A stretch of 58,096 nt of DNA from a virus. Below the pieces are notes generated by a model that saw only the letters and a list, made by a program, of their open reading frames with translations, was not told where the DNA came from and made no database searches. Numbering within the stretch: position 1 is the stretch's first letter; every line of letters starts with the position of its first letter. Below are positions 5,537 through 32,844 of this stretch, in pieces. Made by a program: the position numbers and the translations under genes. The stretch lies in the IMG/VR virus record IMGVR_UViG_3300027609_000006, positions 1-58,096 of that record; one strand, 5' to 3'.

Positions 5537-5631
5537 ACGAAGTGTCAACCCTAGCAAATCCCTCCGTAATCGTCAATACAGTACTACCGTCTCACGAGTA
5601 CCATAACCCGGCATGGACCCCTAGAAAACCG

Positions 5632-5678: not shown

Positions 5679-5724
5679 CACTCCAGTCGGGCGTACGATG
5701 GTTCTATTGAAAGGAGCAAATTCG

Positions 5725-6097: not shown

Positions 6098-6099
6098 GT

Positions 6100-8076: not shown

Positions 8077-8459
8077 TCGCTCGCCGCACCTACCTCAAAC
8101 GCTCCTGGCTCAAGCGCAAGCCGCGCCGCCACGTCGTGCCGCCGGAGATTCTCGCCTATTGGGACTGGATCAGAACCCAGCCGTGTGCGGTGTGCGGATG
8201 TCGACGGGTCATCGAAGTAGCCCATGTCGGGATGCGCGGACTCGGACAACTCTGCAACGGGTGGGAGGTCCTGCCGTTCTGTAAAATCCACCATGAGCGA
8301 GGTTATCCGACTTCGCATCACGATCTCGGAAAACGATTCTGGGTTTTTCACAATCTGGACAGGTACGAGCTGATTCGAAGGTATCGGTTACGATATTTCG
8401 GCCTCACCGGGATTTCGTCTGCGATAGAAGGCTGCTCGTTCGACAGGGAGGCAGCGTGA
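8073..8459 (+). CDS. HNH/DUF968-like putative nuclease
   Basis: CAVCG..EVAHV..LPFCKIHHERG pattern. C-terminal tail is encoded by an F-form arm. Confidence 0.45.
   Translation: MIARRTYLKRSWLKRKPRRHVVPPEILAYWDWIRTQPCAVCGCRRVIEVAHVGMRGLGQLCNGWEVLPFCKIHHERGYPTSHHDLGKRFWVFHNLDRYELIRRYRLRYFGLTGISSAIEGCSFDREAA
8396..8451 (+). repeat. SAR arm, F-form
   Basis: TTTCGGCCTCACCGG..CTCGTTCGACAGGGAGG, 4 nt before GTG 8456. Confidence 0.8.
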
Positions 8460-10606: not shown

Positions 10607-11422
10607 ATGTCTATTTATCGAATATGCAATTGGAATCACCGTTTCGAAAACTCCTCCAGTAGAAAATTAAAACGCCTTGATTGGGTAGCTCTTCCGAATG
10701 CGATGGATATCGAGGGCTACATCGTCCTTGTCGATCACCCCAACGGAGCCGCTCATTTTGGTGCGTGGATCGCTATCGTCCAGATCGCTTCGAAGCAAGA
10801 TCCGCGTGGCACTCTGCCAAATGGGAAAACTTCCCAGTCGCTTGGCGGAATCTGCCAATCACTCGGCAGAATCTCCCGGTTGCCCGCCGGTTTATTCGAA
10901 GAAGTTCTACCTCGTCTAATAGAGATAGGATTTTTGGAAATATCGGCAGAATCTCCCGGTACGTCGGCAGATTCTCCCGGTACGTCGGCAGATTCTCCCG
11001 GTACGTCGGCAAAATCCGCCGATACAGACATACATACAGGGAAGACAGACAAACAGACAGAACAGAGAAAGACTGTTGAAACTAGTAGTTCTATTTCAAA
11101 CCAGAAAATACATGCGCATATGCAAAACGAAAATGGCGCGCACGGCTGGGCCGAATTCGCGGAAGCCTACATCGCAACCGGACGGGAAACAACAGCAGCC
11201 GATCTCGCCAACTCGAAACCGGTCTGGACAAAACTCAGTTTGGGAGATCAGGTCGCCTGCCTCAGCGGGATTCGCCGCGACATCGAGCACCATAAATATT
11301 CCGAGCCGGCATTCTGGCCAAAACCCAAAAAATACCTTCTCGAACGGGAATGGACGCGAGGTCCGCAGGCGCCAAAGAAAAATTCAAAACGAAATTTACT
11401 GGAGGGAGTTTTCGATGCTTAA
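10607..11422 (+). CDS. Replisome-organizer-like replication initiator (carries internal iterons)
   Basis: N-terminus W.ALPN..G..FGAWIAIVQIASK..RGTL..LPRLIEIGFLE fits the Phage_rep_org_N pattern. The middle holds SPGTSAD x3, encoded by 21-bp iterons. Confidence 0.5.
   Translation: MSIYRICNWNHRFENSSSRKLKRLDWVALPNAMDIEGYIVLVDHPNGAAHFGAWIAIVQIASKQDPRGTLPNGKTSQSLGGICQSLGRISRLPAGLFEEVLPRLIEIGFLEISAESPGTSADSPGTSADSPGTSAKSADTDIHTGKTDKQTEQRKTVETSSSISNQKIHAHMQNENGAHGWAEFAEAYIATGRETTAADLANSKPVWTKLSLGDQVACLSGIRRDIEHHKYSEPAFWPKPKKYLLEREWTRGPQAPKKNSKRNLLEGVFDA
10842..10883. repeat. Two degenerate 21-bp iteron copies
   Basis: TTGGCGGAATCTGCCAATCAC and TCGGCAGAATCTCCCGGTTGC. Confidence 0.6.
10943..11005. 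repeat. Three tandem 21-bp iterons, TCGGCAGA(A/T)TCTCCCGGTACG
   Basis: Copies at 10943, 10964 and 10985, plus a degenerate fourth to 11026. Followed by an A-rich ACAGAC-repeat tract to about 11130. Confidence 0.85.
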
Positions 11423-14836: not shown

Positions 14837-15004
14837 TCAACGCAAAGACTTAAATACTATAGAACCGATCAACGGAACCAATGCGACAAACAACTGCCAT
14901 CCCTTATCCGTTGGCTCCGACATGTTCACGGTTTCGGCGTTCACATTCACCTGAATATAGTTCTGTTCAGGCAATAGTTGATCGGGTCTAAGATACTCTT
15001 TCAT
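14837..15004 (-). CDS. Small tail-anchored membrane protein
   Basis: GAGG lies 6 nt before the ATG. C-terminus WQLFVALVPLIGSIVF. Confidence 0.35.
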   Translation of the reverse strand: MKEYLRPDQLLPEQNYIQVNVNAETVNMSEPTDKGWQLFVALVPLIGSIVFKSLR

Positions 15005-15126
15005 TGGAGACCTCGCGAGGCGCACTGTTACAGCGCATGACGTGATCCGAACGAACGAGTATGGTAGGATTGCTTTGGGAAATCCCCATCTCATCCGTGC
15101 TCGAATCACGGATCGGATGAAAAGAT

Positions 15127-15152
15127 CGGGGCAGCCCCCTAAGGCTGCCCCG
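15127..15152 (-). terminator. 10-bp-stem GC hairpin
   Basis: CGGGGCAGCC-CCCTAA-GGCTGCCCCG. On the minus strand it is followed by ATCTTTTC. Confidence 0.4.
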
Positions 15153-15160
15153 TCTCAAAA

Positions 15161-15379
15161 ATGTTTCCCCTCGATTATACGCCTTTTGCGGAGTATGATG
15201 GGTTCAACATGAGACCGCTACCGCCCGCCCCAAATGTCCCTGGAAGTACGGACGCGGAACGCATGAGCAACGCTCTGAACATGGTTCTGAAGGTATCTAA
15301 AGCAGACCTGTTGAAAGAGGAAGCTCGGATCAAGGCCGCGAACGAAAAGAAGCGAGTTCCGAAGAAACCCGCTTCCTGA
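15161..15379 (+). CDS. Small protein, paralog of 43168..43329
   Basis: PPAPNVPGSTDAERM..VSKADLLKEEA versus PAPAPNVPGDTEQERM..VSKEDVVKEEA. The true start may be ATG 15209. Confidence 0.45.
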   Translation: MFPLDYTPFAEYDGFNMRPLPPAPNVPGSTDAERMSNALNMVLKVSKADLLKEEARIKAANEKKRVPKKPAS

Positions 15380-15451
15380 AATTCCACCAGCCTGTCATGT
15401 CGTAGTCTACGATAGCGGTCTGCGGCATGAGTTGTCAACTATATTCTTGCC

Positions 15452-17032
15452 TTAATTCGGCGCCACCTGCTCATCGTAATTTAAAAACTCACTAAGGAAC
15501 AGTTGGTACTTCGGAAGATTCTGTTCGATCACTCTCCACATCGGTTCGTAGGATCGAATCAACGGATCGAGCCCACATTGATTCGATCCAGGTTTAAATC
15601 CGAAATGCTGTTTGATCCAGTTGTAGTTCGACCGCCCGGCGACCGTTTCAATCCCCGTCCCTTCGGTCACGATTTGATTCGCAAACGTGAACCCGTTCGA
15701 ATCCGGTGATACCAGGTGTCCCATAAACATCGGCTCAATGCGTTTCAAAAACACAATACCGGGAGGATCTGCGGGGGGAGGTGGCTGCTGCGGTGGTGCT
15801 TGCTGCATTGGTTGCTGGGGTTGCTGGCCGTTCGCGATGGGCGGCGCTCCATTGGCAGTCCCCGTCAACTTGATCGTAATCGCCTGCATCAGAGGTCCCA
15901 GGATCGTCATACCCATCTGGATGATAGGACCCCATTCTTCCATCACGGATTTCGCTGGAGTTGCGTTCGCGGCTCCTCCATTGCGCGAGTATCCGAGCAG
16001 TTCCGCGTTCGTCTTCATTTCGAGAAGTTGCTCGCCAACGGATTTCTGAGTCGTTAGCGCTGTTGATGGCTGGTTTCGCATCGCATTGAGGTCCGCACGA
16101 AGCGCCGCAATCTGGTTATCCTGCATTGCAGCGAGTCGCGCGTTCGCCTGATCCAGCGAACTCATCAGCGCCGTGAGCGCGGTATTATCCGGCTTCGGCA
16201 GGATATTCAAAATTTCGGTCGCGACCTTCACGGGGTCTGGTGGATCGTAGCGAGCTCCCGCGTGGCTCATGACGGAATCCACGACTTTACTCGCCGATGA
16301 CATCGCTAGGTCGATCGCACCATTGACCGCATGTTGAGCCGGATTAGAACCATTTGGCTGTGTCTGTTCCCGCAATCGCGCAGCTTCATCTTTAGCTCGG
16401 TCTGCGTCTTTCTGCGCATTATCGATTTGTTTATCCGCGAGTCCTAGGAATCCCTGGACCAACACGGCGGCCGTTGCATTTGAATTGGGATTCGGTTTCC
16501 CGGTCGAGCCTTCCATAAAAAAATCATCTCCTTCGTTTGGTGCCGGTTCAGATCCAGCGACCGGATCGCCGCGGCGAAATCGCCAGTCAATATAATCTTT
16601 CGCGGCTGGCTTATCGACGCACAACGTTCGGTCATCGATCTTCGGCGGGAAGCCTTCGCGGTCGGGAAGTGTGAACCAGATATCGCAAACCCGGCCGCTC
16701 AGTCCCTGCTCCTCGACGATCACCTTATATGCTCCAGCCCCGTATTTGTGATAAAACGCAGTTTCGTATTCTTCCGCCTTGAACGCCAGCGGTCCTTCCC
16801 AAATATCGATCGTGGTCGACGTCTCGCCGATTTTCTTCATGTCGATGGGAGGATCGAGCCGGTAGACCCGGCATCGAAGGATCGCGGACAGTTCAACCGG
16901 CAGCGTTTCGCAATATTCGAAGCCCAGTATCGCATCCTGCGACCGTTTCCCATCACGAAATGACGTTTTCGATGGGACCGGGAACGAACATTTAGATTTC
17001 AGTTGAGGGTGATCAAGGTACTGTTTGGCCAT
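15452..17032 (-). CDS. Large hypothetical protein (526 aa), central coiled coil and Q/P-rich linker
   Basis: ORF track. No motif I can name. Confidence 0.75.
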   Translation of the reverse strand: MAKQYLDHPQLKSKCSFPVPSKTSFRDGKRSQDAILGFEYCETLPVELSAILRCRVYRLDPPIDMKKIGETSTTIDIWEGPLAFKAEEYETAFYHKYGAGAYKVIVEEQGLSGRVCDIWFTLPDREGFPPKIDDRTLCVDKPAAKDYIDWRFRRGDPVAGSEPAPNEGDDFFMEGSTGKPNPNSNATAAVLVQGFLGLADKQIDNAQKDADRAKDEAARLREQTQPNGSNPAQHAVNGAIDLAMSSASKVVDSVMSHAGARYDPPDPVKVATEILNILPKPDNTALTALMSSLDQANARLAAMQDNQIAALRADLNAMRNQPSTALTTQKSVGEQLLEMKTNAELLGYSRNGGAANATPAKSVMEEWGPIIQMGMTILGPLMQAITIKLTGTANGAPPIANGQQPQQPMQQAPPQQPPPPADPPGIVFLKRIEPMFMGHLVSPDSNGFTFANQIVTEGTGIETVAGRSNYNWIKQHFGFKPGSNQCGLDPLIRSYEPMWRVIEQNLPKYQLFLSEFLNYDEQVAPN

Positions 17033-17069
17033 CAGACAGGGCTCCGAGGGGGGCGGTTAATTGTAAGTA

Positions 17070-17098
17070 TATATATAGAGCCGGTTGACACGTGTCAA
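17070..17098. promoter_or_regulatory. Divergent promoter core: palindrome TTGACACGTGTCAA plus a minus-strand -10 TATATA
   Basis: Palindrome at 17085..17098 places TTGACA on both strands. On the minus strand a 17-nt spacer leads to TATATA (17070..17075). Confidence 0.55.
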
Positions 17099-17140
17099 AA
17101 TTCTAGTGCAAACTAGTACCCAACGCAAGTACCGGTACTA

Positions 17141-17824
17141 ATGAACACGGCGTACCATCCCGACTTCGGCGTCAAAGTGGCGTACCACTTCGACCGCATG
17201 TCCGAGGACCCGGACGCTCAGGTCCGTCAATCAGTTGCGAAGGCAATCTGCTACATTCGGCAGGACGCATCATCCGCCCCGATCCGCCAGGACGCCGCCC
17301 GCGCGGCCCAAGGAGGTGATCCGATCTCCGGGGTCTGGAAGCTTATCAAGCCGTCCATGAAGTTCAAGCAGGATGTCGACATCGCCCGCGAACTGGACGT
17401 AGACGATCCGCGTAAAGAGGACATCGTCGAGGTTTTCATCCGGCCTGTAGATCAGTCGATGCTGATTGGGTTGCGAGGCGTCGGGGTCGAGGACTGCGAC
17501 GGGTTCACGATGTACGGCGCGTGCCTGCTCACTGCGTTGGGGATTCCATGCGAGCTGGTCACGGTCGCAGCGGATGACAAGCGGCCTCGGGAGTACACGC
17601 ACATCTACGTTGCGGCTTATCCGAATGGACCGGGAACACATCCGAGAATTCCGCTTGATTTTTCACACGGTGAATATCCGGGCTGGGAATGTCCGTCAAC
17701 TCGATTGCGGGAATGGCCGGTGTATGAGACGGCGATGGAGAAGATTACTTTGGCCGCTACTCCTTTGGTCATTGCCGGTGCGGTTTATGGGTTGGTCCGG
17801 TGGATGAATGGGGGGAGCCGTTGA
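17141..17824 (+). CDS. Transglutaminase-like cysteine peptidase-fold protein, C-terminal TM
   Basis: EDCDGFTMYGACLLTALGIPCELV..THIYV..LDFSHG (Cys-His-Asp layout). Confidence 0.55.
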   Translation: MNTAYHPDFGVKVAYHFDRMSEDPDAQVRQSVAKAICYIRQDASSAPIRQDAARAAQGGDPISGVWKLIKPSMKFKQDVDIARELDVDDPRKEDIVEVFIRPVDQSMLIGLRGVGVEDCDGFTMYGACLLTALGIPCELVTVAADDKRPREYTHIYVAAYPNGPGTHPRIPLDFSHGEYPGWECPSTRLREWPVYETAMEKITLAATPLVIAGAVYGLVRWMNGGSR

Positions 17825-17969
17825 ATATTTTAGCCTCATCGAACATTTCCGCTTCGCCCGCGTCCGTGAGCGTTCGACCACGTCAGGTTTTATCGGGCAC
17901 CGGCCAAAAACCCCACCTGGTCGGGCGCTCACAAATCGACGGGGCAAAAAATCGGACGGAGGCCAAATC
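17825..17969 (+). repeat. Complete SAR hairpin (F-form plus R-form) filling the intergenic gap
   Basis: F: TTTTAGCCTCATCGAAC..GAGCGTTCGACCACGTCAGG. R: CCCCACCTGGTCGGGCGCTC..GACGGAGGCCAAATC. Open 50-codon micro-ORF 17821..17973 (TTGA overlap in, GTGA overlap out). Confidence 0.9.
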
Positions 17970-18719
17970 GTGAGCATCATAAATGTAGGATCAGAATACC
18001 CGCCAGGCTACACCGGAAACCCCTACAGCGCCCTGGACATCTCCGTGTTCTTCGATATGAACTGGCCGGATCATGCGGGAATCATGGCGCAAGGATCACC
18101 GGCTTATTCGTCAGGCCTCGGCAGATTGGGACAAGCCGGATGCGCTACCGCGACATGTGACGACTATGCAGATGATGGCGTCACATGTTTGGAATATGAC
18201 AATTCGAGTTGTACCAACGTTACGATCCCCGTTGCTGGCAACACGGCGGTTCCGATCCCCGCGGCGCCGGGATGTGCCACCAGCACTTGTATCGTAATGA
18301 ATCAAGGCGTTTGCACGGGTTACGACGATTCGAGTTGTTCGGCCTCGGTGAATGCAACGACCGCCGCGGCCCTCAATAATCAACTTATAGCTTCAGGGCT
18401 CCCTCAGACAGTGAATCTTAGCGCGACACAAACGGCGGCCCTCACCGCGAGCTTGACACCCGCTCAGCAAGCACAACTGATAGCCGCGGCGGGCAATTCC
18501 GCAGTCAGTCTCATTCGCACGGCTGAAGGTGGACCCTACACGGTCGCCGGAACGAACCTCGTTTACAATCCAGCCACCGGACAACTGACGACCGCCGCCG
18601 CGACGAATGCGACCGCAACCCTCACGGCCGGCCTCTCGGCAATTCAGCCCTACATTCCGATGATTCTACTTGCGGTCGCGGCCATCATCATAGTCCCGAT
18701 GATCACGGGTAAAAAATAA
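17970..18719 (+). CDS. Tail-anchored Cys/Thr/Ala-rich membrane protein
   Basis: GTG start after GGAGGCCAAATC. C-terminus IPMILLAVAAIIIVPMITGKK. Confidence 0.65.
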   Translation: MSIINVGSEYPPGYTGNPYSALDISVFFDMNWPDHAGIMAQGSPAYSSGLGRLGQAGCATATCDDYADDGVTCLEYDNSSCTNVTIPVAGNTAVPIPAAPGCATSTCIVMNQGVCTGYDDSSCSASVNATTAAALNNQLIASGLPQTVNLSATQTAALTASLTPAQQAQLIAAAGNSAVSLIRTAEGGPYTVAGTNLVYNPATGQLTTAAATNATATLTAGLSAIQPYIPMILLAVAAIIIVPMITGKK

Positions 18720-18955
18720 TGCGGGAACTCCGCGTCGTCAAAGTCACGCCAGGCAAATTGGTCGATGGCAGATTTGTGCCCAACCCGGAAAAGATCACGC
18801 GCGCCGGAAAAAAGGCGAAGCGCAAGAGACTGGCTGAGATGATCGCGGCGGCGAAGAACCCGGCATCGAAGAAACTGCCAACCGGGAAATTCGTCAAGGT
18901 CCATGCGATGCGCGTGAAGAAAAACGGGACGGTCGATGTGGTGGTGACTCGATGA
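18719..18955 (+). CDS. Small highly basic protein
   Basis: TAATG overlap with the upstream ORF. K/R-rich: KKAKRKRLAEMIAAAKNPASKK. Confidence 0.6.
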   Translation: MRELRVVKVTPGKLVDGRFVPNPEKITRAGKKAKRKRLAEMIAAAKNPASKKLPTGKFVKVHAMRVKKNGTVDVVVTR

Positions 18956-19725
18956 CCCCATACTGCCCCATCCCGCGAAATCCCGCGCACTACATCCCAC
19001 GGAATCCGTATGTCGATTGGGGTACGGGGATGGGGCAGGTGGTTCCCACATCGGTATCGACCGCAGCTTCAATCGCAGCGACCGGCATCACGACAACGAC
19101 CTCGATCTTGGGGGCGCTGGGTTCCACAATGACCGTCTTAGGATTGGCTCTGCCAGTCGTCGGAACGGCTATAGCCGCACTGGTGGCCATCGGAATTGCG
19201 GTTGCAAATCTATTCAAGGGTTGCGGAGTCACCTGCACCGAAGCGACGACGCTGGCGAATCAGGCGGACGGGATCATGGTCCAGAATGTGACCGCGTACA
19301 CGTCTTCGTCGATTCGCTACGTGTCGATGCAGCAGGCAGCGCTCAATACTTTCGACACGACCTGGGCAGCTTTGCAGCAGGCCTGTGGGCAGTCGGCGCT
19401 TGGAGCCGCCGGCCAGCGGTGCATCACGGATCGGCAGGAAGGCGCATGCACCTGGAAAGCATCGCAGGGAGGTTGGAATTCGGATGGAACCTACACCCCT
19501 TGGGGCGCGGCCGGCTCGGGAGATGTCTGCTGGAACTGGTTTGTCGGCATGCGTGATCCGATCGCGAATGATCCTTTCGTCCAACCGGACCCAACGTCTT
19601 CGAGTGTTGCATCTTCGTCTGTGGGATCGACGGCGGCGACATCAGGCACACCAGCGACTACGGCGACCGATTATTCCGGGTTGCTGATTGCGGCGGCTAT
19701 TGTTGCTGCGGTGGTGCTGCTGTGA
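18952..19725 (+). CDS. Membrane protein (central and C-terminal TM segments)
   Basis: ORF track, ATGA overlap with the upstream ORF. Confidence 0.7.
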   Translation: MTPYCPIPRNPAHYIPRNPYVDWGTGMGQVVPTSVSTAASIAATGITTTTSILGALGSTMTVLGLALPVVGTAIAALVAIGIAVANLFKGCGVTCTEATTLANQADGIMVQNVTAYTSSSIRYVSMQQAALNTFDTTWAALQQACGQSALGAAGQRCITDRQEGACTWKASQGGWNSDGTYTPWGAAGSGDVCWNWFVGMRDPIANDPFVQPDPTSSSVASSSVGSTAATSGTPATTATDYSGLLIAAAIVAAVVLL

Positions 19726-20024
19726 ATATTTTGGCCTCAGTTAGCATGTGGCTTGCGCGCCTCCTTTTGAGCGTTCGACCAGGAGGGGCCGTGGAGCTTC
19801 CCTGGCCAAACACCGCGACCTTCCGATTGTTCTTTGTTTCGAGAAAAGATCCGAAATGGGCGATGGTGGTTCACCAATTTCCCGACGGGACGATGTACGG
19901 GCTGGGTTGCAATATCCCTTTCGTGCAGTCGGCCGATTGGGATCTGAAATGGATCAAACGTCGCCCTGTCGAGGTTGCTCAATCCGAAGGCTCGGAAAAG
20001 CAGAGCGAGGCCAAACCATGCTAA
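19722..20024 (+). CDS. Cassette ORF between F and R arms (start uncertain)
   Basis: MNILAS..SVRPGG is F-arm translation and ..QSEAKPC is R-arm translation. Confidence 0.4.
   Translation: MNILASVSMWLARLLLSVRPGGAVELPWPNTATFRLFFVSRKDPKWAMVVHQFPDGTMYGLGCNIPFVQSADWDLKWIKRRPVEVAQSEGSEKQSEAKPC
19727..19788 (+). repeat. SAR arm, F-form
   Basis: TATTTTGGCCTCAGTTAGC..GAGCGTTCGACCAGGAGGGG. Confidence 0.9.
19962..20017 (+). repeat. SAR arm, R-form
   Basis: CGCCCTGTCGAGGTTGC..AGAGCGAGGCCAAACC, then ATG 20018. Confidence 0.85.
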
Positions 20025-20755
20025 TGGGAATGGGCCTCACCTGTCCCGAAGGTCAGCAGCCGACCAATACACCGAACGGAATGCAATGCTGCGGAGTGCC
20101 GGGCACCTCCTGCGAAGCAGATCCTTGCTCTTATTGCAATACCCCGCAGTACATCGCAACCCAGACCGCCGCTGCCGCCGCTGCGCTACAACCGGGAGGT
20201 GCCGGTCCGCTCGGAGCTTCGATTCTCGAATCCATCGCCAGCTATCCGCAAAATATCCAATCGGACGCGATCGACTGCGTGAGCAACCCAGGTTTGACCT
20301 TTACTGACGAAGAAGGAATTTCGGTCACCTGCCCGCAAGCCTACACGATGGACAATGGGATTCCGGTTTCGATTTACACTGCGGCGCAACTCGCGCAGAT
20401 GTTGTCTGCGGCAGCCACTCCAACCACGGAAACACCCATCAACGTAATCGGCACTTCCATTCCAGCCGCCGCAATCAATGTCACCACGCCGAATCTGCCA
20501 GCCGTCACGTCGGGAACTGTCGCTGCACCGGTTTCAACTACAGCCGCAGGATCGACCTCATCCAGTTCCCCATCGGGCAGTTCGTCAAGTTCATCCACTT
20601 CAACATCGGGCGCATCTTCGACTTCGGGAACTTCGACGCTTGATCTCTCGTTTCTGACGGACGATTCCCTGATTTCGGGAGTGCCTAACTGGGGCGTTGC
20701 GGTCGCAGCGATCGTGGCCTTGATGCTGCTGCCAAAACTGATCGGAGGCAGATAA
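20018..20755 (+). CDS. Tail-anchored Cys-rich, Ser/Thr-rich membrane protein
   Basis: N-terminus MLMGMGLTC, poly-Ser tract, C-terminus WGVAVAAIVALMLLPKLIGGR. Confidence 0.7.
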   Translation: MLMGMGLTCPEGQQPTNTPNGMQCCGVPGTSCEADPCSYCNTPQYIATQTAAAAAALQPGGAGPLGASILESIASYPQNIQSDAIDCVSNPGLTFTDEEGISVTCPQAYTMDNGIPVSIYTAAQLAQMLSAAATPTTETPINVIGTSIPAAAINVTTPNLPAVTSGTVAAPVSTTAAGSTSSSSPSGSSSSSSTSTSGASSTSGTSTLDLSFLTDDSLISGVPNWGVAVAAIVALMLLPKLIGGR

Positions 20756-20756
20756 A

Positions 20757-21236
20757 ATGGGGCTCGGACAATACGCAGGAGCCGCTTCGATCACGCTTTA
20801 TGACGGGACGGTTATTTCGGATCCCGCCAACACGCAGGCTACCCAAGCGCAATGCCTCCCATTCGAATGCGGAGTCGATCCGACCAATTCCGATGTCCGC
20901 TACTGGTGCGGATTCTGGGGACAAATCCAGACTCCTTCGTGCGTCGATCCGGAGTGCGCACCGTATCGGTCTGCGTCTCCCGGCTGTAATGTAGTCGCTC
21001 CCACGCCGCAGATTCCGAACCCGCCGCAACCCGCCGTTGCTCCGGTGATGCTGACGCCTCAGAATATCGTGCAGCCGATGCCGAATATCACGCAGGCGAA
21101 TGCGCCGGTACCGCTTCCGGTTTCCGATGGTTCGTGCTGGTGCGCAGTAAATCAGTGGATCGATCAGAATCCGATTCTTGCGGCTCTTGTTCTTGTGGGT
21201 TTTGGATTGGCTGTTTTGCCCGGGAGAAGCAGATGA
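20757..21236 (+). CDS. Tail-anchored Cys-rich membrane protein
   Basis: N-terminus MGLGQY, C-terminus PILAALVLVGFGLAVLPGRSR. Confidence 0.7.
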   Translation: MGLGQYAGAASITLYDGTVISDPANTQATQAQCLPFECGVDPTNSDVRYWCGFWGQIQTPSCVDPECAPYRSASPGCNVVAPTPQIPNPPQPAVAPVMLTPQNIVQPMPNITQANAPVPLPVSDGSCWCAVNQWIDQNPILAALVLVGFGLAVLPGRSR

Positions 21237-21240
21237 ACAA

Positions 21241-21387
21241 TATTTTGGCCTCATCGAACATCGATCTTCGCCCGCCTGTCCGCACGTTCGACCAGGATAA
21301 GTTGTTGGACTGCGCGGGTCCGAGCAACCACTCCTGGTCGGGCGCGTTCAATCCGCACGAAGCCTCAAATCCGACGGAGGCCAAATA
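21241..21387 (+). repeat. Complete SAR hairpin (F-form plus R-form)
   Basis: F: TATTTTGGCCTCATCGAAC..GCACGTTCGACCAGGA. R: CCACTCCTGGTCGGGCGCG..CCGACGGAGGCCAAATA. Micro-ORF 21233..21388, 51 aa (ATGA overlap in, TAATG overlap out). Confidence 0.95.
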
Positions 21388-22041
21388 ATGGACGAAGACA
21401 CCAAGCAATTAATCAAGTGGGGCGCCATCGGACTCGCGGGCTACTTCGTCTATCAGTGGCTCCAGAGCTCCGGCCTATGGGCGCAGTGGTTCGGAACGTC
21501 CACCGCTTCGAACTCGTTCAACACTTCGACCACCCTTCTCACCTACTGCCAGGCGAACCCCAACGGGACAGCGATTTACGTGGACCCCACGACGGGCGCG
21601 AGTTCGACCGCGACCTGTGCGCAATGGATCGCTTCGAATTCCAACGCCGCACTCCCGGTGACATCGGCCGCTTCCGGACTTGCCCCGAATTATCAGCAGG
21701 CAATTTCGCTGATGCAGCAAGCTGCCGGCAACGATTCGCAGACCGTCAATAACTGGTCCTACTATTGGCAGAACGGCACGATGTTCGATGGCGGGCCTCC
21801 TGGATTCGGAGTGCAGGGCTCAATTTCCCCGGCCCAGTTCAATCAGATTCTTGGATTGAACGCGAATGACGACACGGACCCGGTCACCTCAGAGCAATTC
21901 GTGGCGTGGCTCGTTCAAACCAGTTCCGATCCCAGCTCGGCTGGTGTAGCGACTCCCGCCGGCGTGATGGTGACCGGCGGAACTGGCGCGGGAATGCAGG
22001 GCTACGATTTCAATAGCGATTACAGCGGGTGGGTAAACTGA
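21388..22041 (+). CDS. Membrane protein (N-terminal TM)
   Basis: ORF track. N-terminus WGAIGLAGYFVYQWL. Confidence 0.7.
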   Translation: MDEDTKQLIKWGAIGLAGYFVYQWLQSSGLWAQWFGTSTASNSFNTSTTLLTYCQANPNGTAIYVDPTTGASSTATCAQWIASNSNAALPVTSAASGLAPNYQQAISLMQQAAGNDSQTVNNWSYYWQNGTMFDGGPPGFGVQGSISPAQFNQILGLNANDDTDPVTSEQFVAWLVQTSSDPSSAGVATPAGVMVTGGTGAGMQGYDFNSDYSGWVN

Positions 22042-22646
22042 TGGCGAAAGACGATTACACTTCGATCATTGCTCTCGCCGCAATCGGCGGGATCGCGTGG
22101 TACGGCTATGAACAGGGCTGGTTTTCCAGCCTGTTCGGAACTGCGGCAGCGGCGACCACTGGAACGCCGGCAGCCGCGATCAATTGTCCGTCTCCAAATA
22201 CGCTGGTTGCCGGCGTCTGTACCGCGCCAGTGACGTGCCCATCTCCGAACACAATTATCAACGGAGTATGCACCGCTCCCGTAGTGGCCGCAGCCGGCGG
22301 TTCGTCATCGACTACAGTGGCTCCGCAGGCGATCCCGACGGCCAGCGTCAGCGTCACCGATCAACCGTGGTATGACCAGGTCGCCGCGCTGGCATCGACC
22401 AATTCGCTCGATATGGACCAATGGGATTATTACTACAACCAGATTTTCTCCAGTGCCCCGATCACCGGAACGCAGGTCAACGCGATGCTCGCGGCGCTTA
22501 CCAATCTGGGCCAGACGCGAAGTACGCCGATGACGATGCCGCAGTGGTATTGGCTGCTGACGGCGGGCGGCGGGGGAGTCAGCGGACTGGGCATGTTTGG
22601 AAATTATTTTGGAATCCCGGCTAGCGCGATTCATGGAGGGTGGTAG
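22041..22646 (+). CDS. Membrane protein (N-terminal TM)
   Basis: TGATG overlap with the upstream ORF. Contains IIALAAIGGIAWYGY and repeated CPSPNT..GVCTAPV. Confidence 0.7.
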   Translation: MAKDDYTSIIALAAIGGIAWYGYEQGWFSSLFGTAAAATTGTPAAAINCPSPNTLVAGVCTAPVTCPSPNTIINGVCTAPVVAAAGGSSSTTVAPQAIPTASVSVTDQPWYDQVAALASTNSLDMDQWDYYYNQIFSSAPITGTQVNAMLAALTNLGQTRSTPMTMPQWYWLLTAGGGGVSGLGMFGNYFGIPASAIHGGW

Positions 22647-23171
22647 ATGCTGGTAGGACTCGCCCAAACCACGCCAATTCCGGTTCCGCTGACAACTAGC
22701 GGGGAAACTCTCGCTCAATCGTGCGCGGCGGAACTCGCGGCCAGTGGCGGGCAACCATTGGCGACCAATCCCTATATCCTAAACATGGCACTCGAAGGCA
22801 GTGGGATGGAAGGTCAGAATTTGACGGGATGCCCTCCGGGATACACACTGACGCAGGCGGGTCCGCCGAACGTGAATCAGCCATGCGGATATTACCAATG
22901 CCTGAATGCCGCTGGTCAAAACGTCTCGACGGCCGTCGTTGGTCCAGGGTCCACAAATCCATGTACGGGCTTTAAGGCAATCCCCACAGAGTCGTGGGTT
23001 ATCGGTGGTGCCGGACTGGTCATGTTCCTTTTGTTGGGAGGATGGCTCAAGATTCTCGCGATTCCGGTAGTTGGTTTCGCTGTGCTGAACGTGGCGCTGA
23101 CGAATCTCGGCCCGCAGGTGAATTTGCAAACCGGGCAGATCGAATGCGTGGCACAAGGATTGGAGATGTGA
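22647..23171 (+). CDS. Membrane protein
   Basis: N-terminus MLVGLAQT, two C-terminal TM segments. Confidence 0.7.
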   Translation: MLVGLAQTTPIPVPLTTSGETLAQSCAAELAASGGQPLATNPYILNMALEGSGMEGQNLTGCPPGYTLTQAGPPNVNQPCGYYQCLNAAGQNVSTAVVGPGSTNPCTGFKAIPTESWVIGGAGLVMFLLLGGWLKILAIPVVGFAVLNVALTNLGPQVNLQTGQIECVAQGLEM

Positions 23172-23329
23172 TGGGCGATCTTTCAAGCTGCTACTCCTGG
23201 GAAGCGACCTTCTCACCCCAAGTGTCTTGCGGAACTTCAAACCTGACCCAGAGCGTTTGTCCAGATGCGACGTGGTTTTGGGTGATCGCGGCCGGTATCA
23301 GCTTGGTTGCCATTTTTAAAAAGAAGTGA
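23171..23329 (+). CDS. Small tail-anchored membrane protein
   Basis: TGATG overlap with the upstream ORF. C-terminus WFWVIAAGISLVAIFKKK. Confidence 0.5.
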   Translation: MGDLSSCYSWEATFSPQVSCGTSNLTQSVCPDATWFWVIAAGISLVAIFKKK

Positions 23330-23727
23330 TGATCACAGCACAACATCTCGGAATGGGAAGCGTAACGCGCCTGACGTGTGCCTTCAATCGCAACCGCGGC
23401 GTGATGCTGGCAACCAGGGTGCGAACCGCCGAAACCTTTTCCGATCGCTGTATCGGGCTCTTGGAGCGCGATCATTTCCGGGTGGGCGAAGGCCTTCACA
23501 TCGTGCCGTGCTCCTCCATTCACACCGTCGGTATGAAATTCTCGATCGATGTTGCGTTTCTGGACGAAAATGGCGTGGTGCTCGAAACCTTCAAAGATTT
23601 GCAGCCGGGCCATCGCCGCATCGAATGTTTTAACGCGGTCTCCGCACTGGAATTGCCGTGTTGTGTATTGCGCGCGACCGGAACGCAGCCGGGTGACATT
23701 CTCGAATTCGCGGAGGTCTCATGCTGA
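23329..23727 (+). CDS. DUF192-like protein
   Basis: GLL..GEGLHIVPCSSIHTVGMKFSIDVAFLDENGVV is the DUF192 pattern. Confidence 0.6.
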   Translation: MITAQHLGMGSVTRLTCAFNRNRGVMLATRVRTAETFSDRCIGLLERDHFRVGEGLHIVPCSSIHTVGMKFSIDVAFLDENGVVLETFKDLQPGHRRIECFNAVSALELPCCVLRATGTQPGDILEFAEVSC

Positions 23728-24035
23728 TCGGAATGGGCCAAACCTGCGCGGACGGCACGGCATATGTTGCGAATTTCGGTTGTGACGATGGCAGCACCCC
23801 GACTTGCCCATCTGGATATACGCTGAGCACAGCTTCCGGGCAATATAGTTGCGTCAGCAGTTCAGGTGCAGCTCCGCTGATTGGCGTCACGGCACCAACT
23901 GCAACAACATCCACTTGTCCGGTTGGTTCGACCTGTTCAATAGTCGCGGGAATCTCGAACACGAATATCTATCTGGCCGTAGGCGCCGTTGTCTCGATGT
24001 TCTTGTTGGCATCGGTATTCGGGGGCAAAAGATGA
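23721..24035 (+). CDS. Tail-anchored Cys-rich membrane protein
   Basis: N-terminus MLIGMGQTC, C-terminus IYLAVGAVVSMFLLASVFGGKR. Confidence 0.65.
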   Translation: MLIGMGQTCADGTAYVANFGCDDGSTPTCPSGYTLSTASGQYSCVSSSGAAPLIGVTAPTATTSTCPVGSTCSIVAGISNTNIYLAVGAVVSMFLLASVFGGKR

Positions 24036-24445
24036 CGCCTTACGACATCTTGCAAGTCTCTCACTCCGCGCCGCAAGAAGTGATCCGCGCCGCGTGGTCC
24101 GCGCTCATCCGCCAGTGCCATCCGGACAGCCCGCATGCCGACGAAAAGCGAACGCGCCATTTGAACGAAGCTTACGCGATCCTGAAGGATCCGAAGAAAC
24201 GCGCGGCGCTTGATGCGCACATCAAGGCACGCGCGCAAAGTGGAAGGGAACGGGTTCGCCAGGCGGCACGATCCACCGCGCCCGATCCGCACTCGGCGGA
24301 AATGGCCTATCCACAAGCATATGAGGGATTCTCTCCGGAACGCATCGACGAAGCGATTGAGGAACTGACGCGCGCCGCGGGAGCGCCTCCGATCGTCGGA
24401 GAGTTCATGCAGTTTCTTCACCAGCAAGCGAGGAAAAAGAAATGA
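24032..24445 (+). CDS. J-domain (DnaJ-like) protein
   Basis: TPYDILQVS..AWSALIRQCHPD..LNEAYAILKDPKKRAALD, with the HPD motif. Confidence 0.85.
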   Translation: MTPYDILQVSHSAPQEVIRAAWSALIRQCHPDSPHADEKRTRHLNEAYAILKDPKKRAALDAHIKARAQSGRERVRQAARSTAPDPHSAEMAYPQAYEGFSPERIDEAIEELTRAAGAPPIVGEFMQFLHQQARKKK

Positions 24446-25041
24446 GTCTGATCGGTCTGTCGGCACTCGCCCAAGCATGTTCCTCATCGCTGAGTCCCAG
24501 CAACTGTGGCACAGCCGGCGGAAGTTACGACGGAGACAACGAAGTGTGCGTGTGTGCTGCGGACAGCAGCGGTTTCACCTTGGCACAGCAGCAAGCCCTA
24601 TGTACCTCGGCGGGCGCTGATACGACTTGGGATGCCACAACGAACACATGCGTTCCAATTGGCTCGGCACCCGCGCCAGCTAGTAGTGGCGCATCGTGTC
24701 CAAACAACACGCTCCCGGGCACGCCATCGGATGTGAATTGCCCATGGTGGTGCAACTTCATCGCGTTTCAATCTACTTCCTGTACCCCGTGTACGCAGGT
24801 CTGCCCCACCGGAATGCAATGGGACACCACGAATAATGTGTGCTCGGCGAATCCGGCGTCCAACAATTGCAGCGGTGCCGGAACGGGATCGCCCTGTCCG
24901 AGTTATTGCAACGTTCCTTTGATCGGCGGGTTATTTTCGGCCTGTGCGCCATGCGCCGGGAACACGAGCGCCAGTTCAATCCTTGCCGCATTGGGAGCGG
25001 TTGCCGTTCTCTACCTTGGATACAAGTTGGTGAAAAAATGA
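24442..25041 (+). CDS. Tail-anchored Cys-rich membrane protein
   Basis: Many CxxC-type Cys residues. C-terminus ILAALGAVAVLYLGYKLVKK. Confidence 0.7.
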   Translation: MSLIGLSALAQACSSSLSPSNCGTAGGSYDGDNEVCVCAADSSGFTLAQQQALCTSAGADTTWDATTNTCVPIGSAPAPASSGASCPNNTLPGTPSDVNCPWWCNFIAFQSTSCTPCTQVCPTGMQWDTTNNVCSANPASNNCSGAGTGSPCPSYCNVPLIGGLFSACAPCAGNTSASSILAALGAVAVLYLGYKLVKK

Positions 25042-25355
25042 TCATCTCGGAGCCGATGACATACGGTCTTGGAGACCTAGGCCAGCTCACGATTTCGAGC
25101 GATGTCACGCAGTGGGGATTCGGACAATGGACCGCCGTGATCGTCGGTTCGTATCTGGCTTACAAGTTGATTCTGGACACGAAAACTGTGGGCGGGAAAG
25201 CTTTGAAACACACGAAAAAGGCCCGGCGTAAGATCGCAAAGGCGGCGGTGGGTAACACGAGTAAAATTGGCACGGTCGTAACGGTGGGAGCTCTCGCGGC
25301 AGCCGGTTTTGTGGCTTACGAAGCCTATTCCCAATCTCAGGCGGTGACGCAATGA
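25038..25355 (+). CDS. Membrane protein
   Basis: ATGA overlap with the upstream ORF. Contains GLGDLGQLT and one TM segment. Confidence 0.6.
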   Translation: MIISEPMTYGLGDLGQLTISSDVTQWGFGQWTAVIVGSYLAYKLILDTKTVGGKALKHTKKARRKIAKAAVGNTSKIGTVVTVGALAAAGFVAYEAYSQSQAVTQ

Positions 25356-25365
25356 AAGGATTTTT

Positions 25366-25836
25366 ATGCTACTAGGAATGAATTCTCTGCGCGATTTCGT
25401 ACCGGCGAAGGTGGTTCCCGGATCGCTTCTGACGACAGGAATGAGCGGCCGCCGGGGTGTGGCGGATTTCGTCAACGGCCAGGTGGTGCCCGGCTATTTG
25501 CTTTCAACAGGCATGAGCGCGTTGACTCCCAGCTCTCCCACCGGAATGACGATCCCAAACAATTCAGTCATGACCGCGTGGCAGGGTGCCGGGATGTCGG
25601 GGTGTGACGACGGGTGCGGGTGCGGGGGCAAATGTGGCGGCGGTGGAGGATGCGGCTCGGGCATGGGTCAGTTGTCCCTCAGCTCGATCACGGCTCCGTT
25701 CTCGCAGGCATGGACCGACATTCAGGCCGCGATTTCGGCGGGGTCCATCACTCCTTTGACGGGTGAAGATTGGTTAGTGATTGCTGGTACTGCCGCTGCT
25801 GCGTGGTGGATGTTCGGGAAGAAGGGGAGACGGTAG
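25366..25836 (+). CDS. Tail-anchored Gly/Cys-rich membrane protein
   Basis: N-terminus MLLGMNS, repeated VVPG.LL.TGMS, GCGCGGKCGGGGGCG, C-terminal TM. Confidence 0.65.
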   Translation: MLLGMNSLRDFVPAKVVPGSLLTTGMSGRRGVADFVNGQVVPGYLLSTGMSALTPSSPTGMTIPNNSVMTAWQGAGMSGCDDGCGCGGKCGGGGGCGSGMGQLSLSSITAPFSQAWTDIQAAISAGSITPLTGEDWLVIAGTAAAAWWMFGKKGRR

Positions 25837-25847
25837 GAATTCTTTTT

Positions 25848-25904
25848 ATGTCGGCCTGGCCGCACATTTCGGAGACGCGAACATTGGATGCTCGACGGGG
25901 CAGG
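25848..25904 (+). repeat. SAR arm, F-form, degenerate
   Basis: ATGTCGGCCTGGCCGC..GATGCTCGACGGGGCAGG. The upstream TAGGAATTCTTTTTATGTCGGCC resembles the junction at 46230. Confidence 0.5.
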
Positions 25905-26324
25905 ATCATCCGACACTTCGGAACCCTCATGACTAATCTCCATATCATCGCGACCGATCGCGCCGGGAACATTTGGGATTGCGGCCCCACCCCGAGTCAC
26001 GATTGGGCAAAGGTGCGCGCGAGTCTCGAATCTTCCGTTGGTACGCCATTCTTCGGAATGCCAGGAAAGACGCCATTGCGAAAAGGTTGGCATCCGGAGT
26101 ATGACGAAATTGTGGGACGGACAGAACACGGCTTAGATATCCCGCGAATCACCCTTGAAACGGTTTTCAATGATTGGGACACGCTCAATCGAGATCACGG
26201 CGCTGGAACTTTCGAATCTGTTGCAAACTTCGATGAGATGGCGGTTTTAAAAGTCGCTCTCGAAGCCTATAAGCACCTCCTGGTCGAACGCGAAAAAGGG
26301 CGCGCGAAGAGGGGTGTGCAATGA
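25848..26324 (+). CDS. Hypothetical protein (between F and R arms)
   Basis: ORF 25770..26324 trimmed to ATG 25848. Confidence 0.55.
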   Translation: MSAWPHISETRTLDARRGRIIRHFGTLMTNLHIIATDRAGNIWDCGPTPSHDWAKVRASLESSVGTPFFGMPGKTPLRKGWHPEYDEIVGRTEHGLDIPRITLETVFNDWDTLNRDHGAGTFESVANFDEMAVLKVALEAYKHLLVEREKGRAKRGVQ

Positions 26325-26333
26325 GGCCAAAAC
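26274..26333 (+). repeat. SAR arm, R-form
   Basis: CACCTCCTGGTCGAACGCG..GTGCAATGAGGCCAAAAC. ATG 26321 lies inside the arm terminus. Confidence 0.8.
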
Positions 26334-27079
26334 ATAATCCCGCCAAATTCGACCGTTGCGTAAAGGACGTGAAGCGTTCCAAATCCGCCCGTAGCGCCTA
26401 CGCTATCTGCACAGCAGCCGGAACCCGCAACCCCGGTACCGGAGCCATGGTCGCCTCAGCACTCAGCCACTCCGCCGCCGGCCGCAAAGCACAAGTTGCG
26501 ATTAAAAAGCTTTTCTCGAAGGCAAAGAACCCGCAGGACGCCTCTGAGCAGATGTTCGAAATCTTCCACGGCATGGCGCCGAATGAAATCCTGCACATCG
26601 TGGAGCGCGTTCACGTGCACGCGAACCTGTGGACGGCCGGCACACTCACATCAATGGTGATCCAAACAGAGTATGGCTATCAGTTCGATTTAAACGCGCC
26701 GGACCCGGACACCGCGAAGCCGAAGGATGTGGTGTACGTCACCTTCAACGAAGCCGGAAACCAGATCTACTTCCGCGGCGGCAATCAGGAAATCCCGAGA
26801 TCGTGGCTCGAAAAAGCCGGGCTCAAATCCGACGACTTCCGGGAGCACATGATTATCGGCGCGGTGGTCGAACTGACATACCGGACGAAAAAGAAATTCG
26901 AGAAGGGCGGAAAAGAACTAGTGGACTTCTATCACGGCTTGGGAAAAGAGCACTCGCGCGGAGTTTTGCCGATGCTGGTTTACAAGCCGCGTGATCCGAG
27001 CATGGCGCTCTACGGAGGGCGATATAAAGTGTTGCCCAAGAGGGCGGATTTGGGCGCGAGTCCGGGAATCGGCGGATGA
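26321..27079 (+). CDS. Hypothetical (possibly virion) protein
   Basis: NPAKFDRCVKDVKRS..SAYAICTAAG. Confidence 0.7.
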   Translation: MRPKHNPAKFDRCVKDVKRSKSARSAYAICTAAGTRNPGTGAMVASALSHSAAGRKAQVAIKKLFSKAKNPQDASEQMFEIFHGMAPNEILHIVERVHVHANLWTAGTLTSMVIQTEYGYQFDLNAPDPDTAKPKDVVYVTFNEAGNQIYFRGGNQEIPRSWLEKAGLKSDDFREHMIIGAVVELTYRTKKKFEKGGKELVDFYHGLGKEHSRGVLPMLVYKPRDPSMALYGGRYKVLPKRADLGASPGIGG

Positions 27080-27282
27080 GAATGATGCATTTCAAGTACT
27101 GGGACAACGGAACGCCGTGGCGCAATTTCAACGAGAGAAAGCTACTGTTCGAAGTGGCGGCAGAGAATATTTTCAAAGCCGATGAATGCTACCAGAGAGC
27201 GACGGGCGATGATCCTACCAAACAACCGTACGTCGGCAGGGAAATACGATTGATGGAGAATGGGGAGGCGCGGGACTGCTGA
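27076..27282 (+). CDS. Hypothetical protein
   Basis: ORF track, ATGA overlap with the upstream ORF. Confidence 0.55.
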   Translation: MRMMHFKYWDNGTPWRNFNERKLLFEVAAENIFKADECYQRATGDDPTKQPYVGREIRLMENGEARDC

Positions 27283-27536
27283 TGAACGAACTGATTCAGT
27301 ACGCGCAAACGGTGCCTTACTTCCCCGCGAACTCGTGCGCATGGGGACACGCTGCGCTTGGGTTCGGAACGAGCATCTACCTCACGGATCCGTGGGCGCA
27401 AGCCGCCGCCGCGGTGGCGTTCATTATGTACGAGGTTTGGCGCGAGAAGCCCACCAATGAAAAGGTCGGAGCGGTCGCCGAGTTTGCAACGGGATATTTA
27501 GCGGGAAAGGTTGTCGGGGGGATGAATACGAAATGA
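27282..27536 (+). CDS. Small membrane protein
   Basis: ORF track. C-terminus GYLAGKVVGGMNTK is duplicated at 27800..27843. Confidence 0.6.
   Translation: MNELIQYAQTVPYFPANSCAWGHAALGFGTSIYLTDPWAQAAAAVAFIMYEVWREKPTNEKVGAVAEFATGYLAGKVVGGMNTK
27493..27536 (+). repeat. Gene-end duplication, copy 1 (about 31/43 nt versus 27800..27843)
   Basis: Both copies encode YLAGKVVGGM..K followed by an ATGA junction. Confidence 0.65.
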
Positions 27537-27844
27537 ATAATGTTTTGGCCTCATCGGGCGTTGAGACACGTAAAGCGCAGAACGTTCGACAGTCGAAGTG
27601 CCTGCATTGCCCCAATGAGGCGGTGGATGGCTCGATTTTCTGTCAAGTTCACATCGACATTGATGCAGCATTCCACCTTCGCATCAGAGAAGGCCGGAAG
27701 CAGTGCGCGATATGGCCGGGCGCAGGGATGCTGCAATGCGCTTGGCCCACGTGCGGATGTCCTTCCGATGTGGAACAGGCACGAAGGCAGGCGGAATCCT
27801 TATATCTGGCAGGCAAGGTAGTTGGAGGGATGAGCAGCAAATGA
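27533..27844 (+). CDS. Cassette ORF, Cys/His-rich protein
   Basis: MNNVLAS is F-arm translation. Contains CLHCPNEAVDGSIFCQVH. Ends with a duplicate of the upstream gene's C-terminus. Confidence 0.5.
   Translation: MNNVLASSGVETRKAQNVRQSKCLHCPNEAVDGSIFCQVHIDIDAAFHLRIREGRKQCAIWPGAGMLQCAWPTCGCPSDVEQARRQAESLYLAGKVVGGMSSK
27541..27598 (+). repeat. SAR arm, F-form
   Basis: TGTTTTGGCCTCATCGGGCG..GAACGTTCGACAGTCGAAG. Confidence 0.85.
27800..27843 (+). repeat. Gene-end duplication, copy 2
   Basis: See 27493..27536. Confidence 0.65.
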
Positions 27845-31054: not shown

Positions 31055-31055
31055 T

Positions 31056-32840: not shown

Positions 32841-32844
32841 TTCT

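Follow-up and report, generated by a model that had tools for sequence, protein, structure and literature searches.

What is the sequence that lies between the two plus-strand genes at 17141–17824 and 17970–18719 in a 58,096-nt window of an uncultivated soil virus? The window is the whole stretch of DNA that was analyzed; all positions refer to it, and L-numbers denote the contigs and loci with which it was compared. The initial annotation had described a hairpin here that coincides with a 50-codon open reading frame (ORF). We found that positions 17825–17969 consist of two copies of a ~65-nt module placed back to back, a stop-side arm (T) and a start-side arm (S), which together occupy the entire gap between the two genes. 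This stretch is almost certainly an ‘empty’ doublet of a clade-specific intergenic repeat that carries a ribosome-binding site (RBS).

The arms of the doublet are inverted copies of the module, which has the form ccTCCtGGTCGRRCGc-N~33-GAGGCCAAA-nn-ATG. The module has two fixed boxes, ctCCTGGTCGRRCGc (box A) and GAGGCCAAA, whose 5' ends are 40 ± 1 nt apart, and the ~33 nt between the boxes contain a half-conserved CGAAG. Measured between the first bases of GTCG and GAGG, the spacing is 40 nt in 113 of 211 distinct copies and 39–41 nt in 194 of them. Motif searches and a repeat finder first revealed the family across the whole window, and an nhmmer profile built from 44 copies identified 56 copies in the window, 27 of them in plus and 29 in minus orientation. 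Ten first-order Markov resamples of the window gave no match to the profile. Both arms at 17825–17969 are recognized by the profile: T on the minus strand from 17889 to 17823 (35.5 bits, E = 4.4e-10) and S on the plus strand at 17909–17972 (39.3 bits, E = 2.9e-11). Modules occur at a density of ~1 per kb in at least six related IMG/VR contigs as well.

The locus is composed of the following parts.

17141–17824, plus strand: upstream gene of 227 amino acids, from the ORF list; its TGA stop codon (17822–17824) is 4 nt ahead of the outer helix.
17821–17973, plus strand: 50-codon micro-ORF, an open frame and probably no gene.
17825–17890, plus strand: stop-side arm T, a reverse-complement module copy, which reads TTTAGCCTCATCG...GAGCGTTCGACCAcGtc on the mRNA strand.
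17829–17837, plus strand: 5' strand of the outer helix, TTTAGCCTC, with GAGGCCAAA at 17959–17967 as its partner and one A.C mismatch in the sense RNA.
17866–17880, plus strand: 5' strand of the inner helix, GTGAGCGTTCGACCA, in the minimum free energy (MFE) fold, with T17873 and T17874 in U.G wobbles.
17881–17917, plus strand: apical region, folded as a degenerate continuation of the helix (GGTTTT/AAAACC) with a variable tip.
17908–17969, plus strand: start-side arm S, a sense module copy, which ends in GACGGAGGCCAAATC right at the start codon.
17918–17932, plus strand: 3' strand of the inner helix, TGGTCGGGCGCTCAC, from the sequence, the MFE fold, and the doublet alignment.
17958–17962, plus strand: GGAGG, the Shine-Dalgarno (SD) sequence of the downstream gene, located 7 nt from GTG 17970 and within the outer helix.
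17970–18719, plus strand: downstream gene of 249 amino acids from GTG 17970, as placed by the start positions of homologues.

The central helix is as initially annotated: GAGCGTTCGACCA (17868–17880) pairs with TGGTCGGGCGCTC (17918–17930) through two wobbles, T17873.G17925 and T17874.G17924. The MFE fold lengthens this helix from 13 to 15 bp and adds the outer helix. The sense RNA of the doublet has a predicted energy of −59.6 kcal/mol (z = −3.41), a value that 1 of 200 shuffles attained, and the sister element at 21233–21388 has a fold z of −4.58. The architecture that the two elements had been said to share is borne out, with a real hairpin in both, as is the ~80% identity of their F halves (50 of 62 positions identical between 17829–17890 and 21244–21304, or about 81%; 76% counting gap columns). 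A strand-specific G.U pattern had also been claimed. This holds for the central helix and does not extend to the whole element, because the antisense strand has the more stable overall fold (−71.6 kcal/mol, z = −4.97) and the outer helix has its A.C mismatch on the sense strand.

The window has two other short-loop doublets and one inverted pair with a longer loop.

19724–20022, plus strand: T...S pair with a 169-nt ‘loop’ that carries a 77-codon ORF (19791–20024).
21239–21391, plus strand: sister doublet (T, 21239–21303; S, 21326–21391).
31051–31206, plus strand: third short-loop doublet (T, 31051–31117; S, 31141–31206).

The 77-codon ORF starts 2 nt past the GGAGGGGCC of the T arm and ends at a TAA that overlaps ATG 20018. 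In all, the window and six related contigs yielded 19 short-loop doublets, 17 of which were used for alignment and for pairing counts. The 19 doublets are 156–160 nt in total length with a gap of 17–21 nt between the arms. Such doublets take up all of the space from stop to start codon, and 17 of the 19 have TTTGGCCTCATCG...CGTTCGACC as the stop-side arm and GGTCGGGCG...GACGGAGGCCAAA as the start-side arm. The two U.G wobbles are no quirk of a single copy, as both columns are UG in 17 of 17 aligned doublets. Across both helices, 94% of helix cells are paired, and the consensus outer helix is 97% paired.

The modules do not coincide with recognizable transcription signals. A terminator scan of 15000–33000 found no terminator-like site at any module and a total at the level of shuffles, and the sequence following the 3' arm, ACAAATCGACGG, does not have the U tract of an intrinsic terminator. 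Sigma-70 promoter-like sites numbered 7 as compared to 8.3 ± 2.9 in shuffles, with none within modules. The sole match to Rfam at the gathering threshold in the window was a tRNA, and at E up to 1 only sub-threshold chance matches were seen for 17600–18200.

The position of the modules with respect to start and stop codons provides insight into what the repeat carries. Sense (S) copies end 2–8 nt ahead of a start codon (~22 copies, for ORFs of at least 45 codons), and GAGG is therefore an SD sequence at canonical distance, as exemplified by GAGGCCAAA at 17959–17967 ahead of GTG 17970. About half of the module copies are antisense to the local genes, and these T copies begin 0–22 nt past a stop codon (~19 copies, for opposite-strand ORFs of at least 60 codons). 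At junctions having only a T copy, the far end of the module is CCAGGAG(G), with GGAG located 0–8 nt ahead of the next start codon. The end of S frequently reads GAGGCCAAAccATGA, and in several cases an upstream ORF (100–236 codons) reads through S and stops at that TGA. The order of modules along co-directional gene blocks is T, S, T, S, with 13 of 15 T copies being followed by S in a hand count from the profile matches. The T-to-S distance is 20–24 nt in the three short-loop doublets of the window, and ranges from ~95 nt to 2.4 kb elsewhere.

Certain sequence variants depend on the orientation of the module. Of the start-context copies, 44% have GGAGG in place of TGAGG in front of CCAAA, as compared to 13% of stop-context copies. 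Likewise, 17 of the 20 start-side arms in close doublets have GG in box A, a variant seen in about 15–20% of all other modules. These orientation-dependent variants constitute our main argument that selection acts on the transcript or its translation, and not only on double-stranded DNA.

Some start-side modules overlap coding sequence. At 26273–26338, 6958–7023, 34777–34832, and 40821–40888, the upstream ORF runs through the module, which encodes the last ~20 residues (…EAKP*), and these modules are still conserved at the nucleotide level. One module, at 57116–57054, is 3 nt from a tRNA-Thr(CGT) (57120–57194, minus strand) and itself ends 2 nt before the start of ORF 56450–57058 (minus strand).

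The predicted probability of GAGG being unpaired is 0.04 in doublets as compared to 0.27 in single S modules (p = 3.6e-5). Our preferred reading, to which we assign a probability of roughly 0.45, is that the module is an RBS-carrying cassette that, when doubled, hides the RBS within an mRNA hairpin, and that the same modules are boundaries for gene shuffling. In a polycistronic mRNA, the T and S arms would pair to form the 15-bp inner helix with its conserved tandem U.G and a 9-bp outer helix, which would tie the GGAGGCCAAA ribosome-binding site to bases just past the upstream stop codon. The stop and start codons would thus be set side by side, and the RBS would be occluded until the helix opens, either by means of a ribosome terminating upstream (translational coupling) or through cleavage of the long helix. 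In a sense module, GAGG located 7 nt before the start codon would serve as the ribosome-binding site, and in an antisense module, CCAGGAG at the far end could act as the RBS of the next gene. We infer that the hairpin forms in vivo and controls translation, and RBS occlusion within doublets is predicted from the modeled folds.

A number of observations weigh against this reading. Both module orientations are equally frequent and equally conserved, and equal conservation is the expectation for a double-stranded DNA site; the GG variant of box A is also present in some S modules that have no partner. Of 23 helix pairs, 16 are invariant, and the covariation score is not above that of shuffles (51 of 500 reach it). 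As the boxes are invariant, the helices are conserved as sequence, and covariation neither proves nor disproves pairing; covariation was for these reasons rejected as support for the doublet helices. No consistent difference between sense and antisense strands is seen across doublets in the folding energy of the whole element. Forcing open the 5' strand of the outer helix, which mimics a terminating ribosome, increases the predicted accessibility of the RBS from 0.16 to 0.25, and a ribosome at the stop codon freeing the RBS was rejected, the predicted effect being weak. Lastly, single modules, which make up the majority of copies, are unstructured (mean z = −0.43 versus shuffles, pair probabilities ≤0.16), and because of this the conserved ~50 nt upstream of the SD sequence are unexplained by RNA folding. 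The idea that a single module folds on itself into an SD-sequestering hairpin was rejected on the basis of these values and the lack of covariation between GTCGRR and the bases preceding GAGG.

The other part of the preferred reading, that modules bound exchangeable genes, was examined at orthologous junctions. The 227-amino acid upstream protein has homologues in L019, L082, L017, and L083 (63–83% identity, aligned to residue 223 of 227). At the junction following homologues with this level of identity, the doublet is kept in L019, L082/L022, and L093, even though the downstream protein shows about 40% identity or can be aligned only partially. The doublets at 17821–17973 and 21233–21388 had been considered recent copies of each other. 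The existence of the doublet at the orthologous junction in four genomes, where the upstream protein is 68–83% identical and the downstream protein has ~40% identity or aligns in part, speaks against this, and the likeness of the copies is therefore due to a conserved repeat family and not to recency.

Other relatives have additional sequence at this same junction. An ORF of 180 amino acids, which has no homologue in the window, is located in the apical loop of the doublet in L017 (5507–6082 within 5448–6146), L084, and L094, between ...GTTTTCGTC and GAAAAAACC.... In contig 3300050821_013320 and a near-identical metagenome contig, the 180-amino acid ORF lies exactly within the apical loop, having the layout ...CCAGGAGAAAGTTTTCGTC - 17 nt - ATG ... 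TGA - GAAAAAACCTCTCCTGG.... L083 has a short insertion of ~110 nt at the junction, and a homologue of the window gene at 34829–35152 occurs inside a different T...S pair in L025. Entire doublets also differ between relatives. A full doublet at 8869–9022 of L017, flanked by the direct repeat GGAGGCCnnnnnATGA, separates two genes whose orthologues adjoin each other in the window (20755/20757) and in L082. Another doublet follows the orthologue of 22029–22646 in L017 and L019, but not in the window (junction 22646/22647). That modules are the boundaries of gene and doublet gain and loss between relatives is a direct observation, whichever functional reading holds.

In a more distant clade, in which the 227-amino acid protein is 50–55% identical, the boxes differ: CCTCCGGCG...CGTTGGCGGTCC is found in the stop-side arm and GGACCGCCAACG...CCGGAGGCAAcACATGA in the start-side arm. 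The layout is unchanged, with a small ORF again located between the arms. At these loci (L095, 1440–1725; L097, 630–700; L098, 2590–2740), CCGGAGGCAA replaces GGAGGCCAAA and the U.G wobble is absent. As judged from sequence, the joint change of both arms fits pairing, a shared binding protein, and concerted evolution alike.

The micro-ORF exists as initially annotated, with TTG 17821 overlapping the TGA at 17822–17824 and the terminal TGA (17971–17973) overlapping GTG 17970, and would encode the peptide (L/M)NILASSNISASPASVSVRPRQVLSGTGQKPHLVGRSQIDGAKNRTEAKS*. Its status as a gene did not withstand comparison, as similarity of the peptide between copies is confined to the conserved DNA boxes. 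The frame in the 3' arm yields HLVGRS at 17821–17973 as compared to SWSGA at 21233 and in the ortholog in L082. Of the sense frames, that of the micro-ORF is open in 59% of doublets and the remaining two in 24% and 53%; two doublets have every sense frame closed. A conserved small-protein gene was rejected, since neither peptide nor frame is conserved, and the 50-codon micro-ORF is probably no gene. A longer ORF (303 amino acids), in frame with the downstream gene, runs through the stretch from ATG 17808. Homologues of the downstream gene in L019, L084/L017, and L082 begin at residue 1–3, right behind their own S module, and for this reason GTG 17970 is favored over ATG 17808.

Literature searches provided analogues but no description of this module element. 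The closest known case is that of the start-associated sequences (SAS) of Cluster K mycobacteriophages, which consist of the 13-bp GGGATAGGAGCCC in 11–19 copies of one orientation, along with ESAS inverted repeats of 17 bp that have a 4–13 bp spacer (Pope et al. 2011, PMC3203893). The module resembles SAS and ESAS in position and in having unexplained conservation. Each is a genome-wide repeat that contains the SD core and ends shortly before the start codon (3–7 bp for SAS, 2–8 nt for the module), is associated with an upstream inverted repeat, is kept across related phages before unrelated genes, and varies in consensus by sub-clade. However, the module is ~65 nt in length, occurs in 56 copies in both orientations (27 plus and 29 minus) with a different role at each end, and has doublets that form ~150-nt stop-to-start hairpins. 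The sequences are also unrelated, the module being without GGGATAGGAGCCC, and the host is presumably a soil bacterium instead of Mycobacterium.

REP units are ~20–40 nt in length and are hairpins themselves, and REPINs need a RAYT transposase (Bertels and Rainey 2011, PMC3116915). Similar to REP, BIME, and REPIN elements, the module is an extragenic repeat located between co-directional genes, occurs as singlets and as inverted doublets with a short spacer, has doublet arms that differ at fixed positions, and shows presence/absence polymorphism. Unlike these elements, the single module forms no stable palindrome (mean z −0.43, pair probabilities ≤0.16), and no Y1_Tnp or other transposase was found among the 72 ORFs of the window by Pfam and PHROGs, the sole recombinase being a serine resolvase/invertase. 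REPs, moreover, carry no RBS and do not abut start codons, whereas the module accounts for ~6% of a viral genome. As for the hallmarks of MITEs, inverted repeats and presence/absence polymorphism are both present, and the flanking direct repeat GGAGGCCnnnnnATGA is seen at one site only.

The PeSL cassettes of T4-type phages, which Arbiol et al. are said to have described in 2010, reportedly consist of an early promoter and a stem-loop in direct orientation. These, too, are repeated intergenic cassettes, found on either side of small ORFs and at sites where related phages have gained, lost, or shuffled genes, but the module has no promoter consensus, is inverted, and supplies an RBS instead of a promoter. 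The intergenic RNase III sites of phage T7 are ~50–60 nt in length, number ~10 per genome, and have demonstrated cleavage. They resemble the doublets in being intergenic hairpins with conserved non-canonical positions, located between the cistrons of polycistronic mRNAs; they differ in that most module copies are single arms and in that the hairpin here is known from a predicted fold. The attC sites of integrons are imperfect palindromes of 57–141 nt at cassette boundaries. The doublets have in common with these an imperfect palindrome at boundaries, strand-specific imperfections, and small genes of unknown function between repeats. However, the RYYYAAC ... GTTRRRY core is absent, the doublet termini being TTTGGCCTC ... 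GAGGCCAAA, and genes are found inside as well as outside the inverted pair. No match to a tyrosine recombinase family of Pfam, to which IntI would belong, was found in the window, and the PHROG ‘integrase’ and ‘invertase’ matches, which came from a pooled scan with the ORF unspecified, are best read as the serine recombinase at 41238–41900. The repeat shares some features with REP/BIME/REPIN elements, PeSL cassettes, T7 RNase III sites, and attC sites while lacking defining features of all but possibly the T7 sites.

Alternatively, the module could be a site for a virus-encoded, sequence-specific DNA-binding protein (a repressor or regulator, cf. stoperators and the reading of ESAS by Pope et al.), a possibility we consider unlikely. 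The boxes would be read at their fixed 40-bp spacing in either orientation, they would be located at gene boundaries since coding sequence cannot hold them, and their GGAG/GAGG ends would have been co-opted as ribosome-binding sites. The equal frequency and conservation of the two orientations, the fixed box spacing (40 nt in 113 of 211 copies), single modules without predicted RNA structure, the lack of covariation, and the helix-turn-helix (HTH) proteins encoded in the window are all in keeping with such a site, and the boxes differ by clade with both arms changing together (CGTTGGCGGTCC / GGACCGCCAACG in L095, L097, and L098), as reported for ESAS (PMC3203893). A symmetric site, though, does not predict the systematic differences between orientations (GGAGG versus TGAGG, and GG versus AA in box A) nor the nucleotide-exact placement relative to start (2 nt) and stop codons, and no binding protein is assigned to the module. 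It also appears unlikely to us that the module is a selfish, MITE- or REPIN-like repeat, whose ~158-nt doublet would spread as a unit or be lost by recombination, leaving singles as remnants, and which would be tolerated through the RBS it carries, with the hairpin having no regulatory role. Such a repeat would explain why the GGAGGCCnnnnnATGA-flanked doublet of L017 (8869–9022) is present or absent, why the doublet after the 22029–22646 orthologue occurs in L017 and L019 and not in the window, why genes have been inserted between T and S, and why doublet arms are closer to the arms of other doublets than to nearby singles. At odds with it are the absence of RAYT/Y1 and DDE transposases among the 72 ORFs (Pfam, PHROGs), the lack of a clear target-site duplication of fixed length, boxes that are far more conserved than proteins, and a doublet kept at the same junction despite the ~40% identical downstream protein.

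It is rather unlikely that the doublet is a processing or stability site of the RNase III type, at which the host enzyme would cut a predicted ~25-bp imperfect inner helix to separate the cistrons and, by analogy to phage T7, would leave a protective 3' hairpin upstream and free the downstream RBS. The doublet does have a long intergenic helix of two or more turns, a conserved non-Watson-Crick tandem U.G, and an RBS held in the outer helix. RNase III substrates require a helix of at least ~20 bp, and 15 bp plus a degenerate extension is predicted here; single modules cannot be substrates. Very improbable is a relay through the micro-ORF, in which a ribosome would stop at TGA 17822, restart at TTG 17821, melt the hairpin, stop at TGA 17971, and restart at GTG 17970, with the act of translation mattering and not the peptide. 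In its favor, all three doublets of the window have a start codon a few nt from the upstream stop and a frame that reaches or just passes the downstream start, the five doublets with an ATGA/GTGA start have a frame that ends at that TGA without an internal stop, and in 14 doublets the TGA-ending frame has 3 stops as compared to about 11 and 13 in the other frames. However, the copies are homologous and these counts hence non-independent, two doublets have no open sense frame, the frame of the 3' arm differs between copies, and no SD sequence exists ahead of TTG. A further reading considers the inverted T...S pair a dedicated gene-docking site of this virus clade, with genes captured in the apical loop. 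Breakage of the palindrome or the conserved serine recombinase might take part, and the captured gene would at once be provided with a T-arm RBS (CCAGGAG) and, at the S arm, with coupled stop and start codons (…GAGGCCAAAccATGA). These would constitute integron-like ‘plug-and-express’ cassettes on RNA or DNA hairpins without a known integrase, which we view as decidedly doubtful.

The repeat appears to be limited to relatives of this virus. Among 185,579 representative genomes of bacteria and archaea, a pattern scan yielded single, chance-level module matches only, and no prophage or host was found. The sole match in the genome collection that is also recognized by the module profile is at 380–433 of L037 (DATLVQ010000036.1), a 3.8-kb contig of a Bryobacteraceae metagenome-assembled genome (MAG) that has no protein homology with the window. 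This match is a weak hint of an Acidobacteriota host, or is a mis-binned viral fragment. A second pattern scan of viral contigs for doublets added only chance loci, and no match was found in cultured-phage records by megablast of 24 kb or blastn of the doublet.

The window is a genome-sized element that is rich in genes of unknown function. Relatives of 57–63 kb come from IMG/VR and from JGI soil and peat metagenomes, and a total of 63 related metagenome loci were collected. PHROG matches in the window are annotated as endolysin and tail tape-measure protein, and other recognizable genes encode the serine resolvase/invertase, a D12 methyltransferase, glycosyltransferases, a PIN/RHH toxin-antitoxin pair, and one tRNA-Thr. 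One further gene was assigned as follows.

39072–40133, minus strand: HerA/FtsK-type ATPase, matched by the PHROG ‘terminase large subunit’.

The N-terminal part of this HerA-like ATPase is repeated as ORF 40454–40825 (minus strand), with both matching the same relatives, and a 299-nt internal duplication of 79% identity is seen between 39829–40127 and 40518–40816. A second, unrelated start-associated repeat, CCCTTAGCGCGAACGgAgGGGCAGtCGGC...GAGGgGAGCGCCAAaCCATGA, occurs at 6481–6545, 8014–8078, 35090–35154, and 48918–48982, and also ends in an ATGA stop/start overlap. In 10842–11025 there are 21-nt repeats (TCGGCAGAATCTCCCGGTACG), with 3.5 tandem copies at 10943–11016 and spaced copies upstream; these are iteron-like in sequence and may be a replication origin or a regulator-binding array. 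A 42-nt tandem repeat (3.6 copies, 86% matching) is located at 51161–51310 inside ORF 50684–51712, the N-terminus of which has a match to the D12 adenine methyltransferase family.

Should the proposed function of the cassette be correct, ~40% of the genes of this virus would draw their RBS from one repeated, exchangeable module, and some of these ribosome-binding sites would be locked in a stop-to-start hairpin, a compact design for translational coupling across 145 nt. This could account for the exchange of unrelated genes among relatives with expression retained, as in phage mosaicism. The modules also affect annotation, in that gene callers are misled into spurious micro-ORFs and N-terminal extensions (17821–17973, and 17808–18719 versus the true start at 17970), and modules extend into the 3' ends of real genes as well. 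For the unexplained ‘start-associated sequences’ of actinophages, the repeat provides a second example that is independent and much larger, and it offers many natural variants for comparison.

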